Shown: in pieces, positions 3,001 to 51,191 of the stretch
How positions within the stretch are numbered: the first letter of the stretch is position 1
Layout of the letters: every line of letters starts with the position of its first letter
Source of the DNA: Podarcis liolepis
Taxonomy: Eukaryota
NCBI GenBank assembly: GCA_965112155.1
Contig: OZ218103.1
Strand: one strand, 5' to 3'
DNA length: 64,000 nt
Made by a program: the position numbers and the translations under genes
Notes under the pieces: model-generated
Database searches by the model: none
What the model was told of the DNA's origin: nothing
The model's input: the letters and a program-made list of their open reading frames with translations, nothing else

Positions 3001-4994
3001 TTGTGGAATAATAGCTGGTGACTAGAAATACAGGGCATCTCACCGCAGTGGGGAAAACATGATCTGCAATCCTGCTTAGTCGGCTGTCCAGGTATTAACT
3101 GATGACCAGCAATTTCAAGCCCCCCCCCCCATTCTTATGGTTGTTTATCTTTAAACTGCCTTGGACTAGACAGCCTTTCAAGTCGCGGACTCATTGAAAC
3201 AGACTGCCCACTGTAAGGGGGCCATCCTAGGACTCAGAAGACCACCTAGAGTCATGCTCTCCAGTCTGGAAGCCCCTTCCCTTAATCCCAGCAAGCATTC
3301 TGCACATGCTCAAAGGCAACAAGCAGTTCTGCACCTGTTCTAGGACTCAGCCCTGGAACTGAAAATTGTTTTGGGCCCAAGCCATTTTTAGATCTGTCTG
3401 TCCCCATACCTGAGCAGGTATTTCAGGACAGCGGCATTCTCGCCACAAACAGCTCTTAGTCCACGCTAAGGAACTAACTTCCTAAATGAGATCACAACAC
3501 GAAAGTGGCAGAGTTTTTTTAGTACTGCTCCAGAACCACCAGGGGTAACTTCCCACCTGCTTTCCCGATATGGCCATGTTGTGGACAGGTAGCAGCAGAG
3601 GAAGAGTTATTAATATGGCAGCTAGAGGAGCTAGCAGTTATCAGGTGCTTGCTTGCCAGTTCACTGAGTTTACCAAGACTGAGTTGGGACACATTAAAGA
3701 AAGACCATTGCTGTCATTCCCTGCTTCAGGTGGTTGAGATTCCTGTGGAAACCCTGTGGGATTTCATCAGGCCAGGCGCATGAGGTGCGTGAAGTGGTGG
3801 ACTTGAACCTGAGGGTTCTGGCTTCAGATCGCACCCCCCCTCCAGACATGAGGCTCAGTGTGAATGAATTTGGACTGCACTTTTTCTCAGCCAAACCTAC
3901 ATCACAGGGTTGTCGGGAGGCTAAGAATAGGGTGTATCCTTATCTACTAACCCAGGCTGCTTGGAAGAAGGGGGTATATAAACATGTTGAAGTAATTAAC
4001 AGCAGATTCAGTAGTTTGAGCTTCATGCCAAGGGTGTAAGGGTCAATTCATACACCAACTCTACTTGCTCTCTTTTCCTGGCTGACTCACAGCAAGAAAA
4101 GTGTGCTAATGAGCTGGAAACTGGAGAGTTTTAGCCAAAGCAACTATTGTGGTCTGTTGTCATCATTATTTTTTGTATTTTTTCTGATAATGGAAGCTGC
4201 TACAGGCTACCGCCCAAGTAAGCCAAATCCCAGCTGCTACCACATTGCTCTCAAGAACAGGTTTCTCCTGCAAGGGGGGAAAGGAGAAGATGCAAGGGGC
4301 AGAAAGCAGCCTGTGAATTTGCTCAGATCTCCACATTTGGGATCAGAAGAGTTCGGGATTGTTTTTTTCCTTCTCCTCCAGATCAGGATGGCTTCCCCAA
4401 CGGCTCATGAAACTCACTGCTGCTTTTTGCCACACTTTGAACTAAAAAATGGAAGGAGCAAGACGAGGCACAGCTGGGATGCAGTTGTCAGCTCATTTTC
4501 CGATTAGCCAAGCAGCCTCCTCTGTATTGCATCCCTTCTTTGGGCAGCTCCTGAAAGGGGAATTGCTGAGAAATGACTCGTGGGGTCCTTGAGAGAAGAA
4601 GGGGAGGCAGGGTGGCCACTCAGCCAAAAGGGGCTCCAGGAGGCCATGGCAAGTGCTTAGGGAACAACCCTCTTGGCATCTCCAAAGCAGTGTGGGACCA
4701 GGTCGCCCCCCCCCTTGCTCTTTGCCCTGCTGCTTCTTAGCCTGCCAGCAAAAATTGGGTTGTGCTGCCACTTAGTGGAGATAGGTATCTTTATTATTTT
4801 TTTTAAAGAAAAAACCAGGGTGCCTTGTTTCTTTTTAAAAAAATCACTCTTTAAAAATCACTGGGGTTTTTTTTGTTCTTCTCTCTCTTCTAGAAAGGTT
4901 CAGGTCTCTTTTCCTTCTCTGTTTTGATTTTTAAGAGTGAGCTCATGTGATATGTGTCCTAAAGTTCTTCTCATTTTTTTTAAAAAAACCCATA

Positions 4995-12669: not shown

Positions 12670-12839
12670 CAGTGGCGTAGCGTGGCTTGTCAGCACCCGG
12701 GGCAAGGCAAGTAATTTGCGCCCCCCTAACCCGTGGATTTGTGCCCCCTAACCCGTGGATTTGCGCCCCCTAACCCTAACCCCCAGATGTTGCGCCCAGT
12801 GCGGCCGGCCCCCCCTGCACCCCCCACGCTACGCCATTG
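12670..12839. mobile_element. Non-autonomous hAT element (short form) with CCCTAA-containing internal repeats
   Basis: TIRs CAGTGGCGTAGCGTGG / CCACGCTACGCCATTG; perfect 8-bp TSD AAGTGACC at 12662-12669 and 12840-12847. Confidence 0.92.
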
Positions 12840-25734: not shown

Positions 25735-26583
25735 CATAAGAACGTAAGAAGAGCCTTCTGGATCAGGCCAATGGCCCACCTAGTCTAGCATCCTGTTCTC
25801 ACAGTGACCAACCAGATTTCAATGGGAAGCCCAAAAGCAAGACCTAAGCACAACAGCACTCTTCTCATTTTTGCCCCGCCCTGGCCACAGTGATCCATGC
25901 GACGGTCACCTCCAGCCTTGACTACTGTAATTCGCTCTATGCGGGGCTGCCCTTGAAGCTGACCCAGAAACTCCAGAGGGTGCAGAATGCTGCAGTGAGG
26001 CTCCTCACGGGGTCTCTGCCATGGGAGCATATTCACCCAGTGCTTTTCAAACTGCACTGGCTCCCGGTGGAGTACAGGGTCAGATTTAAGGTGCTGCTTT
26101 TGATGTTTAAAGCCCTTCACGGCCTAGGACCCTTGTACCTACGGAACTGCCTCTCCCGGTATGCCCCACGGAGAGCCTTAAGGTCCATAAATAACAACAC
26201 CCTAGTGGCCCAGGGCCCTAAGGAAGTTAGACTGGCTTCAACCAGAGCCAGGGCCTTTTCAACTTTGGCTCCGGCCTGGTGGAACGCTCTGCCTCATGAG
26301 ACCAGGGCCCTGCAGGATCTGATTTCTTTCCGCAGGGCCTGTAAGACAGAGTTGTTCCACCTGGCCTTTGGCTTGGAATCAACTTGATTCTCTCCCCCTC
26401 TTTCTTTTTCCTTTTTCCTTTCTCCTCCTGTGATGAGGCTGCATTTTAATATTTTAATGTTTCAATATTTTAAGGTTGTATTTTAATCTTGTTTTTAAGT
26501 TGTATTCATTCAACTTGTTTTTATTAGTGCTTGTTAGCCGCCCTGAACCTGGCCTTGGTTGGGGAGGGCGGGGTATAAATAAA

Positions 26584-39100: not shown

Positions 39101-40261
39101 TACCCACTACAAGCCCTCGGTTTGGGTAGACTAAAAATGTGGCATGAATGAATAAAGAATAAGTGTTTACAGATATACCAAAGTTGAATGGGGGAAAATG
39201 AATATTTGAAATGTCTTATATTGAAGCAGGCTACTGTTGCATCTAGCCCTGTGCTGCTTACTCTGACTGGTAGCTCCTCACCAGAGTCACCAGTAGGGCC
39301 CCCTCCCATCACCTGCCACCTGAGCCTTCTAGCTAGAGTTGTGTGGGGATTGGACCTCCATGTAAAGTGAGCCCTGCCGTTGAGCTATGGCCCCTTCTGA
39401 AACGTTTTGACTCCCAGGTTCCAGCATTAAGTATTTGCAACAGAGGGCACCAAATCTAGAGAGAAGGCAAGTCTCAGCAAATTGCAAATGCGGGCTGAAC
39501 AGAGGAAGGAACAGAGGACATAAACTCATAAACTTAAGCGAGAGGGAAAGTAAACTTGGCTGCAGACTAGGCTACCTGATTTGTGCAAACTACGGTAGGT
39601 TGTCTGTATGTCAGGAAGGGCCACAGAAACGCTTGATGAAAAGTTAGTCAGCACAGTGATGCTGCTGCCAAGGAAGCCACCTCTGAACTGAGTTACTTTA
39701 AGAAATAAGAAAGGAAGCAGGCATGGGAGGAAGTGCGTGTTCTCTAGCCTAGTCAGCCTGTGTGCAGCCGTACTGTGCTGAACCTGGACCACTCCGCTTA
39801 TCAAGAAAGGCAAGGGAGGGGCAGGCAATAATCCAAAGCAGAGCAAGAGAAGCCATTGGAAGCATTGAGAATAGATTGGGGGTGGGGCGAACACAGGTGG
39901 TAATGGGTTCACTTGGCTTGGAAATGACTGCAGCCTGTTCCCATAATACCTTCTGCATGGGCTATGCAGGCCTTTAGCTGCGCCGCCACATACTGAGCTT
40001 TTCCTATGGATGCCAAAAATAAAACTTGAAGTGGGCAAAAGTGGTTAGGATCCTATTGCCACATGGGTTAATTTCATGGCCTCAGAATTTTATATGACAT
40101 GATTTGTGTGTGCAGTAGCAAGGCCGAAGGGGCTCAACGTAGCCAAAGGATGCAGTTGCCGTGTGCAGAAAGGGTTGTGAGAATAGGGTCCAGTGAGCGG
40201 AGGGGATGTCACTGAGGATAAACATGTGATTGTTCTCCTTTTCTCCTGTGGATAAGATGAG

Positions 40262-40714
40262 CAGTGGCGTAGCGTGGGGGGTGCCAGGGGGGCCGGCCGC
40301 ACCGGGCGCAACATCTGGGGAGGCGCGCTCGCTGCCTCCGGAGTCGCCGAAGAGCCTCGGGCACAGGCTGTAGTGGAGCCGCATGTCTCGCGGAACCGAC
40401 GAGCTGTGCGCGCGTCCGGGCTGAAGGCGCCCGGCAGGCAGCGGCTCTCAGCGCTCGCTGCGGAGGACGCGCCAGGCAGCCCCTCCTCACAGCCCCGCCT
40501 CCGCCAGTGCTGCTGCAGCTGCTGGGCCGTTGCATTTTCCTCGCCTCTCTGCCCCCCTCCTCCTCCGGGCAAGCGGCGTCGTTTGGGCGGCAGCGCCAGC
40601 GGCAACTCACAGGTTAGGGGTTAGGGGGGGCGCAAATTACTTGCCTTCCCCCGGGTTAGGGGGCGCAAATTACTTGCGTTGCCCCGGGTGCTGACAACTC
40701 ACGCTACGCCGCTG
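40262..40714. mobile_element. Non-autonomous hAT element (long form) with ~290-bp CpG-rich internal segment
   Basis: TIRs CAGTGGCGTAGCGTG / CACGCTACGCCGCTG; perfect 8-bp TSD AAGATGAG at 40254-40261 and 40715-40722; ends match the reverse complement of 12670-12839. Confidence 0.92.
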
Positions 40715-42337
40715 AAGATGAGAACTCTTTGGCATAAACTGCAAGGGAAAATATTCAATCTGTATGTTAGGAAAACTCACTAGCTGCCAGATTGGTGGTT
40801 GCCTTGAGGCACAGTGGTGTGTCTCTCTCACTTGGAGGCCTCTAAGAGCAGGTTTCATAAGTTCAAGTCCCTGGGACAGGGCTCTGTTTCTGTGATGTTA
40901 TTGAGGAGACAGGGTGACCAAGCTGTGACATATGTTCCTCGACAGACTGAGAGGCACTGCGCAGGCCCCTGGGATTCTTCCAGTTGGTGAAGTTTAACCC
41001 TCTACCTGGAATTTTAGCATGTCTTTGCATAGTTGTGAAGACCTGGAATTCCCAGGACACACCTGCACCCAATCTTTATTTGCGCTTAGGAGGCACATCT
41101 TATGAGCCTGTGGTCCACGCTCTGGACAAACTACACAACTTGAGCCCAGGCTAGTCTCCGCCCATCTGCTTGACCATAAGTGCGGACTGTACACTCTTCC
41201 TGGTGGAGTAATTGTGTCTTGAAAGATACTGTTCTTCCTTTTTGGGGAGACTGATACAGGGACCAAGTTGGGGAATTGCGAAGTCTCCTGTTGGAAGATG
41301 CTTTTTCTCAGCCTGAGCCCTCTGCGTATTCAGTATGGGGGAAAGAACTGACGTCCCATTTAGAATCACTATAAGGATTAAAACTGGACAGTATATTTGA
41401 AGTGTGCAGAGCAGTCAAAAGTGCTATATAAATGTCATGTAGTGATTTGAGCGTTCCCATGCTTGTGGAGCTGCAGCCCACAAGAGAGAGAGGTATCAGC
41501 AGACGTTGTGTCAAAACAACAAGAATGAATTATAGAAAACAGTTAGCAGAGAACATTTGTCATAATCTGGCAAATGCCTGGGGAAGAGAGATTTTTACTT
41601 GGTGTTGAAAAGTTGTTAATAATGACTGCTCCAGCAAGGTGGACCTTGCTGGGGGAGCATTCCACAAGCGGAGAGCCACAACTGAAAAGGCCCCTTCCCT
41701 CATCACTCCCTTCTGAACCTCCCTCAAAACAGGCAAGGCTGCAGTGTGGTCTAGAGGTATTTCACCCCTGTTGCAGGTTGAGGTTGGACTGAAGCAGAGA
41801 GTAGCATACAAAAAACCTGCTGTGCAGTTTATTGTTTTTATCCTCGTATTATGGGCTGAGAGAGAGTCATGTATAACAACCCTAATATATATACTTTCCA
41901 GGGAGGTAGGAAGAGTCCTTAAAAATGTGAAAGGAAAGAAACCCAGACAAAACACCTTGAATGGAAGAGCAATTAGTGCCGTAAAGTTCACTGTTATACC
42001 CCTATTGCAGCTTGGAAGGCTGTGCAGAGAGGCAGGGAGGGAGAGTAGCTTACAGGAGCAATGTAGACTACTGTTAATATTGCAGGGTAAAGGAGGACTA
42101 CATGAACTGCTTCCTCCCAGGCCAGAGCAAACACTTAATTGCTTGGAGAAGCCATTTACTTGCATGCAGTCTGCACTTCTTAAATGTTAAAATCTGAAAA
42201 AATAAATACCTAAAAGTAGTTTGTGAAGCTAGATCTGTCAGAGTAGAGATGCCTTTCTTTGATGCTAAGGCCTAGGTAACACTCCCTCCCCCTCCCCCCC
42301 CCAAGATACACTGTAACATTTTCCTGCAGGAAAATGT

Positions 42338-42659: not shown

Positions 42660-43520
42660 TGATTATTCTGGCTGGCATCCGTCTGTCTCAGGAGACAATG
42701 GAGAAGTGCACCTTTGGGGATGAAGTCAAACTGTCGGAAGGTTGCAGGGCCTTCTGTGGTAGAGACCAATAAGAGAGAGACATGTTTGGTTGCAGCTGGG
42801 GCAGATGAAGGAGTCTGGTTGTGCTGCTGTAGATGCTTCTCTCTGCATCATTCCTTCTCTGGTCACTGCTGTGGATACATGACCTGAGTATCTGTCTCCA
42901 GGGACTGCAGTTGTCTGCAAGGAATTCTCACACAGCGAGGGTGGTGTTGCCAGCCTCCACATCTCATTTGCAGACATCTTTGTAACACAGAGTTTGTCTG
43001 CCAACAGGCCTGGTGCCTGACGCTGGCTCCCCATAGAGCATGTCCTTGGGTATCCTGCCATCTTCCATTCTGTGGACGTGACCAAGCCAGTGTAGACATC
43101 GCTGAAACAGGAGTGCGAACATACTTGGATTGTGGTCATGGGAGAGCATGTCTTTGTTTGAGACTCTGTCCTGCCATGCAGTGCCCAAAATCTTCCTGAG
43201 GCAGCACAAGTGGAAGGCATTGAGGCATTGCTCCTTGTGGCTGTGGGTTGCCCACGACTCACTTCCATAAAGCAGCACACTTAACACGCATACTTGGTAG
43301 ACCTTAATCTTTGTATTGATCATTAGCATCCCATTCTCCAATACCCTTTTGGAGAGGTGAGCCATTGCTGCCTTGCCAAGACACTTGTGCAGCTCAGCAT
43401 TGAAGGAGAGGTTGCTGGTCATGGTGGGACCCAGATGGTCAAAACTCTCCCACCTCAAGTGTGTGGTCCCCAGTGCTGATGTGTGGCATGCTGGTGATGT
43501 TGTCCAACAACTCCTGGAGG
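42660..43520 (-). mobile_element. Degenerate RTE-clade LINE 3' fragment (not Bov-B)
   Basis: Minus translation TKIKVYQVCVLSVLLYGSESW...LNAFHLCCLRKILG...WLGHVHRMEDGRIPKDMLYGE...G, with frameshifts. Confidence 0.85.
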
Positions 43521-43932
43521 GCCACAGGTTCCTCGTTCCAAGGATATAGATCCATCTGTCCCATGGTTCTGCCCACACCACACAAATTCAGCTTTGAAAA
43601 GGGAACTAGAAGTGAGAGCTCTGTGTTACTTTAGACATTTCTAATCTACGTGTAAGAAGAATCCCATGGAAAATGAGTTCCCTCTTCTCTCCCGACCTGG
43701 ACACATAAGAGTGAGTGCGGAAAGTCAACTGTTTGTGCCCCATGGTGGAAGGTGCTGTAGGGATCTATGCTGATGGACATTCTTTTTATTTGTGGCTGTG
43801 TGCTGCATGTTTATTCCAACCTTCCTCTTGGGAGCTATGGGTAGCTTATATGCTTCCCACTTGCGTCCATGAATTGACCTACTGTGAGCTGCTTTGGGGG
43901 GCCATCTTTGGCCAAAAGGCAATCCAAAATTA

Positions 43933-51049: not shown

Positions 51050-51191
51050 GATGAGACATCGGTGAGCAGTGAGGACTTTGATATGAGTGACTCCACATGG
51101 ATGTCAGCTGACCAGCATCTTAACTCCAGTCTGAGTCCTAGCCAGGAGGAAGGGATGCGCAGCCCGCAGAACATCCACAGCCAGGAGGATG
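51050..51191 (+). CDS. NOL4L: NOL4L internal coding exon ([48 protein letters not shown]), 142 nt, phase 0 to 1; contains the short-isoform start ATG at 51083
   Basis: Long pyrimidine tract with TAG acceptor ending at 51049; donor ATG|GTGAGT at 51191/51192. In frame with exon 16435-16544 and matches the recalled NOL4L peptide. Confidence 0.96.

Follow-up and report, generated by a model that had tools for sequence, protein, structure and literature searches.

Did the GC-rich middle of a 453-bp hAT element in the genome of the lizard Podarcis liolepis come from a larger transposon, or was it taken from a host gene? The element lies in a 64,000-nucleotide stretch of DNA, referred to here as the window. 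The original prediction was that a non-autonomous hAT had captured a host promoter or first-exon fragment, with the alternative that a shorter form with the same ends is a deletion derivative of a GC-rich parent. The features of the window that bear on this question are as follows.

40254..40261, plus strand: left 8-bp target-site duplication (TSD), AAGATGAG; the empty allele in other runs skips 461 bases, that is, 453 + 8
40262..40714: non-autonomous hAT of 453 bp, with a perfect 8-bp TSD and shared hAT ends
40262..40332, plus strand: hAT 5' end (15-bp TIR and subterminal region), oriented like the transposase gene of the autonomous element
40331..40608, minus strand: captured GNAL-XL fragment, 265/302 columns identical to L180:1524-1223
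40331..40384, minus strand: decayed GNAL-XL codons 1-18, MRLHYSLCPRLFGDSGG.. where the donor has MGLCYSLRPRLFGDSGG..
40610..40714, plus strand: hAT 3' end, made up of the right TIR and a subterminal repeat, GGTTAGGGG-GCGCAAATTACTTGC, present twice
40715..40722, plus strand: right 8-bp TSD, AAGATGAG
12670..12839, minus strand: 170-bp MITE with the same ends and its own TSD, AAGTGACC
51050..51190, plus strand: NOL4L coding exon, 100% identical to Podarcis muralis NOL4L over 47 aa

The overall build of the element is as first described. The same 8-mer stands at both flanks, the two TIRs agree at 14 of 15 terminal bases, and the ends said to be shared with the 170-bp element match it at 93% (first 59 bp) and 91% (last 66 bp), in opposite orientation. 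This MITE type returned 2299 first-look candidates in the genome. The segment 40321-40611 contains 35 CpGs, the number that had been estimated, and has the composition of a CpG island (G+C 72%, CpG observed/expected 0.93 and length 291 bp, for thresholds of at least 55%, at least 0.65 and more than 200 bp), while the observed/expected ratio of the window is 0.30. A foreign core does exist within this segment, but it runs from 40331 to 40608 and not over the whole of it, the first bases (40321-40330) still being transposon end. The predicted GC box, CCCCGCCTCC, is present at 40493, but the donor reads CCCCGCCGCC there and lacks the box. Its T is found in 28 of 30 aligned copies, so that the box reflects a change in the element lineage (or a later one in the donor). 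The minus-strand frame MRLHYSLCPRLFGD, noted earlier as dissimilar to transposases, begins at 40384 and is the decayed N-terminus of GNAL-XL. The GNAL-XL fragment is antisense to both the window element and NOL4L, and the frame predicted from it continues antisense to NOL4L, through the 5' TIR, into the flank. The insertion was also placed correctly, with a CpG island at about 28.5-31 kb on one side and the NOL4L exon at 51050 on the other. Elsewhere in the window, 9-11 bases are missing at 39893 relative to the contigs of all six DNA runs (in run X1, relative to one of its contigs), and open frames at 25785-26387 and 42726-43587 resemble, by eye, decayed LINE reverse-transcriptase ends.

To find the donor of the core, we used a pattern for its left edge without the element's run of G. 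There were 16 matches, comprising 15 family copies and one locus on contig 8 at 49.755 Mb (L180), which is TIR-free and lies inside a CpG island about 1.1 kb long. A pattern for the 3' junction gave two matches, both elements, and a variant built on a minority allele gave none. The core aligns to L180 at 95% without gaps, with one 22-bp and one 2-bp gap. The reading frame at L180 is exon 1 of GNAL isoform X1 (94% identical to that of Zootoca vivipara), and the captured fragment consists of about 250 bp upstream of the start codon and codons 1-18. No family TIR was found in 3 kb around L180, nor in any of 20 stretches of 10 kb from -40 to +160 kb. Among 83 distinct fetched loci with the core motif, L180 alone has neither element end; 81 have both, and one is a 5'-truncated copy. 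The N-terminal motif of GNAL-XL, MGLCYSLRPRLFGD, occurs in 111/111 homologues returned, from sharks to birds, and this conservation sets the direction of transfer as host to transposon. The core of the window element is host DNA copied from the GNAL-XL first exon and the CpG island upstream of it. First-exon capture had been predicted together with a TIR-less donor at the 5' end of a gene, and exon 1 of GNAL-XL is that donor. The prediction had been staked on two points, and on both the result favors it: the core does not match the autonomous hAT described below, and it has a TIR-free host donor.

The element also has the properties by which Pack-TIRs are recognized. It carries 100-5000 bp of non-transposon DNA between the ends of one element (278 bp in the window copy, 323 bp in an older subfamily). 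Its donor is at least 90% identical with a length ratio of 80-120% (95%; 278/302 bp) and has no such transposon within 100 bp, where family TIRs were what was screened for. A working filter that asks for a unique top hit gives a different outcome, as the best 40 matches are all 97-100% identical. Applied as in the main text of PMC8277862, this filter would likely drop such families.

An autonomous partner was found among 17 DUF4371 loci fetched. This element (L096, contig 7) is 4801 bp long, has the TSD CTGGTCAG and has the same termini as the window element. Its intact 825-aa frame contains DUF4371 (PF14291, E 1e-16) and Dimer_Tnp_hAT (PF05699, E 8e-12), with motifs at 341, 408, 439, 496 and 771 that we take to be D, D, CxxH, RW and E, respectively. 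From this domain content we presume, as a lead, that the transposase belongs to the Tip100-like subgroup of hATs; a search of PDB sequences gave 0 matches. Among the best 55 of 497 candidates, one intact transposase copy was found. The 5' end of the window element is 92% identical to bases 1-66 of the autonomous element, and its 3' end is 92% identical to bases 4736-4801, with junction letters common to another family with these ends (L143). With an 8-bp TSD, short shared TIRs and a partner that encodes a hAT transposase, the window element has the features of a hAT, and the shared ends make it likely that a transposase of the L096 type mobilized the GNAL copies. The autonomous element itself has an added 1.6-kb GC-rich 5' segment (L096:7945-6273), which contains an internal 3' TIR of its own and, nested, a repeat from another family, and truncations of this segment by MITE insertion gave rise to further multicopy families.

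Could the 453-bp form instead be a deletion derivative of such a GC-rich autonomous element? True deletion derivatives do occur among relatives of the window element, including forms of 154-166 bp, and the 5' part of the parent contains CpGs. For example, L356:6809-5429 (contig 14, 55.57 Mb) retains the plain 5' region of the parent, in which CCAAT-like boxes and a likely splice donor can be made out by eye, together with the first 194 transposase codons, and the 5' end of the window element matches it at 92% over 71 bp. However, this derivative lacks the GNAL core, and bases 1-66 and 388-453 of the window element are the only parts in common with the autonomous element. Aligned to the autonomous element, the GNAL core scores 38 and 44, no better than shuffles of it (38 and 40). 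It aligns to neither element but to a conserved host coding exon, and for this core the alternative offered with the original prediction is rejected, with virtually no chance left to it.

The capturing element is not a one-off, being one of hundreds of copies. A search with the core returned 881 first-look candidates, the best 40 of which account for the 97-100% matches given above; all 30 that were fetched from these 40 are family copies that open with the same TIR. Exact matches to a CpG-free 24-mer of the core number 370 including the donor (reversed control, 0), which gives at least 369 GNAL-carrying copies besides the donor. When 20 copies were drawn irrespective of similarity from the first 100 listed 24-mer matches, 19 had both TIRs, and 17 of these 19 had a perfect 8-bp TSD. 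In a set selected by similarity, 36 of 44 copies had a perfect TSD, and five of the remaining eight are length variants. Island-like flanks were seen at 2/19, 1/30 and 2/30 insertions (5/79 in total), which does not support an insertion preference for CpG islands. In 6/6 DNA runs from five organisms, the site lacks the insertion and has the 8-mer only once, as judged from contigs beside which a filled allele may coexist; depths of contigs in these DNA and RNA runs do not equal copy numbers. The core sequence is present in all six DNA runs. At the diagnostic positions examined in one of the organisms (organism F), the letters are mostly donor-like, and capture therefore likely predates the split of organism F, with amplification continuing afterwards. 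An older subfamily carries a GNAL piece of 323 bp (269 upstream of the start codon and 54 coding) that is 96-97% identical to the donor and without deletions, from which the window subfamily has lost 22, 2 and 20 bp.

The GNAL exon is not the only cargo of these ends. A 5'-end pattern that excluded the GNAL core gave 78 matches, and of the 30 extracted, some are plain deletion derivatives (the 154-166-bp forms) and most have other cores. The same hAT ends carry at least eight different CpG-rich cores, with CpG observed/expected ratios of 0.63-0.98 in the island parts of the eight that were followed. Donors were found for four of the eight, namely GNAL, exon 1 of a claudin-like gene, exon 1 of a ubiquitin-specific protease (USP) gene and one CpG-rich locus without a gene name. 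The claudin-like family (L152) has 27 copies with outer TIRs, one of them seen in part, and one TIR-free locus; its donor is exon 1 and the upstream region of the gene, and in the element this DNA follows the first 45 bp of the GNAL piece. The USP family (L141) has seven copies, which come from exon 1 and intron of the gene with 3 kb deleted, and no donor was found for bases 98-148. A third family (L161) has two copies and a CpG-rich donor on contig 9 at 14.29 Mb (L268 / L314), where a tRNA-like stretch just past the junction was not called by ARAGORN. The V family, with 464 candidates and both TIRs in 30/30 fetched, combines 308 bp of the V2 family with the last 167 bp of a window-type element, in which 63 bp of GNAL are contained. 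For the L143 family, exact matches number about 550 (281 counted on one strand). Among the best 40 candidates scored, or among exact matches, no donor was found for the V/V2, L140 and L143 cores; L359, considered as a V/V2 donor, was rejected as another composite. For the L154 core and the 5' core of the autonomous element, 8 and 14 loci were checked, and all have family TIRs (L351 without the outer end).

Of the four donors, three are first coding exons that lie within CpG islands; background rates of island-like 300-bp windows are 10/666 and 15/528. This bias should be read with caution, as the independent count is small, the window element was itself selected for its CpGs and the families share ancestry. 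Since insertion sites are seldom island-like, any bias toward islands acts at capture or amplification. Three other arrangements were seen among the sister elements. A 713-bp cargo element on contig 20 at 35.8-37.3 Mb (L384-L386) recurs at several places with the same flanking 8-mer and a 1.66-kb spacing, and is probably carried in a tandem or segmental repeat. Five V2-type elements on different contigs (L283, L285, L293, L294 and L304) have one common 3' flank, three of them with an extra internal TIR, and are probably part of a larger mobile unit. Finally, L311:2718-3296 (contig 14, 3.0 Mb) lies in DNA rich in CpG and has a 573-bp 5' part of the V2 type, for which no 3' end occurs within 2.7 kb; it is a possible orphan end or larger capture.

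How host DNA came to lie between these ends is partly recorded in the sister families. Their composites consist of a 5' end, cargo and a complete MITE of the short type also found at 12670-12839. Two 5' ends and one 3' end are present at 82 of the fetched loci, where a TSD surrounds the whole composite in 81/82 cases and the inner MITE in 0/82, and the inner MITEs occupy 13 different sites. The USP donor still contains, beside the captured flank, the MITE that provided the new end, together with its own TSD, ACTCCACA; two other donors have an empty MITE site and one copy of the 8-mer. The composites fit the use of outer ends of neighboring elements, as described in the available text of PMC6379663, or a switch of template to a paralogous MITE, with copying carried on into the DNA beside it. 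The GNAL piece could have been acquired by the first of these routes, if two direct-orientation members flanked it, lost their inner ends and remained mobile through their outer ends, as in the Pack-CACTA model, with deletions following later. The composites and the resident MITE at the USP donor make this route visible in sister families, and the founding GNAL event is not preserved in the genome. However, a nested end is present in 0/30 extracted GNAL-carrying elements, the surroundings of the GNAL donor that were screened hold no family TIR, and a single existing family, L143, matches both ends as well as the letters at the 3' junction. Even the resident-MITE pattern can also be explained by a template switch to a paralogous MITE with run-on. 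We regard capture of GNAL between two elements as possible but doubtful.

The junctions themselves point to a core swap by template switching, which we think is probably how GNAL was captured. At the 5' joint there is a GC microhomology to the parental end, and the letters that follow at the 3' joint are those of the L143 family. Microhomologies of 2-4 bp easily arise by chance in DNA of 73% G+C. While an excision gap was being repaired, an element of the L143 type would have replaced its core with 323 bp of GNAL, with joints at 2-bp (GC) and 3-4-bp (CGG) microhomologies. Later deletions would have produced the window subfamily, and the transposase of an intact same-ended element would have spread the copies to hundreds of sites. 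Sister elements may have gained more host DNA by combining the 5' end of one element with the 3' end of a neighboring MITE. Following insertion, copies would have been methylated in the germline and decayed as passengers. Taken as a whole, we consider it probable that the window element is a non-autonomous hAT with a GNAL-XL core that was captured by template switching, spread by a same-ended element and now decays as a germline-methylated passenger. The donor, the junctions, the copy number, the independent TSDs, the empty orthologous sites and the intact transposase frame with identical termini were each observed directly.

The passenger role was read from patterns of decay. Compared to the donor, 19 unselected copies have deamination changes at 105/1389 CpG positions and 35/2634 other C/G positions. 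Compared to the family majority, the counts are 68/1200 for core CpGs, 20/2564 for other C/G and 30/548 for CpGs in the ends. Per site, this amounts to 0.057 for core CpGs and 0.055 for transposon-end CpGs (Fisher p 0.91), with 0.008-0.013 for other C/G, an excess of CpG transitions in the core of about 7-fold to 10-fold. The excess is also seen in a mutation spectrum of 39 copies, left after five of the 44 similarity-selected copies were dropped, a set biased to low divergence. As core CpGs decay as fast as end CpGs, the captured island is not shielded in the germline on average, and the copies appear to be methylated there and to decay as passengers. The original prediction spoke of portable mini CpG islands, which holds for base composition but not for the mutation pattern, which is that of methylated germline DNA. 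Were the copies portable unmethylated islands or promoters, the window copy would start antisense transcripts inside NOL4L. The core does have the composition of an island and derives from a real first-exon island, the mean identity of the 19 unselected copies to the donor is still 95%, and promoter-bearing bat Helitrons reach higher copy numbers, according to the available text of PMC4224331. However, the core CpGs decay like those of the ends and 7x faster than other C/G, and the spread of decay among copies is not clearly above Poisson (p 0.08, driven by one more-decayed copy), which makes this quite improbable. No RNA data set was listed as containing the stretch. In two RNA runs from organism F, which lacks the window insertion, depth is about 0-14 on the core and about 300 on the ends, with no start peaks; because donor-like alleles are present in these reads, the core reads may be GNAL mRNA.

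The transposase (L096:3634-6108, contig 7, 56.30 Mb) is overall 95-97% identical to newt and toad proteins: 788/825 positions to a protein of Pleurodeles waltl, 787/825 to Pelobates cultripes and 593/611 to Pelodytes ibericus. In contrast, full-length alignments of the GNAL-XL exon to frog homologues give about 38-45% identity. On these sequence comparisons, the transposon family was likely transferred horizontally between lizard and amphibians, and a near-identical transposase in a newt and two toads would point to a recent transfer that dates the whole system. A horizontally acquired hAT might even act as a promoter shuffler in lacertids, capturing, chaining and scattering CpG-island first exons as hundreds of polymorphic copies, a minority of them unmethylated and providing new start sites. 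We think this unlikely, but if true, lizard populations would differ in regulatory elements copied from other genes. The family also offers a natural experiment, with hundreds of replicate insertions of a ~300-bp island, of graded age and with empty alleles in relatives. It asks if an island fragment alone resists methylation, and the mutation pattern says that it mostly does not.

Gene capture by cut-and-paste transposons in animals has been described as mostly single-copy and independent of transposition. The lizard family is a plant-like case in an amniote: a single captured first exon is present in hundreds of copies, donors can be identified for several other captures, and the one genome preserves intermediates of two routes of capture. 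High-copy packs may be hidden in repeat libraries as plain "non-autonomous hAT" consensus sequences. In the openly accessible literature, we found no paper on this lizard hAT family, on lizard Pack-hATs or on this lizard–amphibian transfer, and none on cut-and-paste elements of a vertebrate that reached hundreds of copies per capture, took up cargo serially and left intermediates in place. Such behavior had been called little described in vertebrates. This needs qualification, as animal Pack-TIRs were catalogued by Tan et al. in 2021 (PMC8277862), but its main text gives just four multicopy cases. "Lizard", "reptile" and "CpG" are absent from that main text, whose supplementary species and case lists may bear on novelty. 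The closest of its cases is Pack-hAT-N8_XT of Xenopus, with 291 bp of the CAPSL 5' UTR in three copies. Like the GNAL elements, it has hAT ends on a host 5'-end fragment, a distal donor, distinct TSDs and short junction microhomology, and a template-switch model, FoSTeST, is proposed there for Pack-TIRs. In the lizard, unlike the Pack-TIRs of that text, one capture has at least 369 copies, the same ends carry at least eight cores, recombinants between cores occur and intermediates are preserved.

Our lizard family is a cut-and-paste hAT, unlike the rolling-circle Helibats; Helitrons are rolling-circle elements without TIRs or TSDs. In other respects the two are alike. For example, in the available text of Thomas et al. 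2014 (PMC4224331), Helibats of Myotis are vertebrate DNA transposons that amplified promoters, 5' UTRs and first exons, reaching about a thousand copies, and they show a bias to gene 5' ends and serial capture; HelibatN3 carries the NUBPL promoter and first exon. The closest parallels to the route of capture and to its bias are found in plants, in other superfamilies. Pack-CACTA elements, as portrayed in the accessible part of Catoni et al. (PMC6379663), capture DNA between neighboring direct-orientation elements, as may be the case in the lizard sisters. Rice Pack-MULEs (Zhao et al., PMC5861414, as far as the available text goes) acquire fragments with a bias to GC-rich genes in open chromatin. 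There, Pack-MULE insertions lie close to 5' ends, and many of these elements are both hypomethylated and expressed, whereas the lizard insertions are rarely island-like and the copies decay as methylated DNA.
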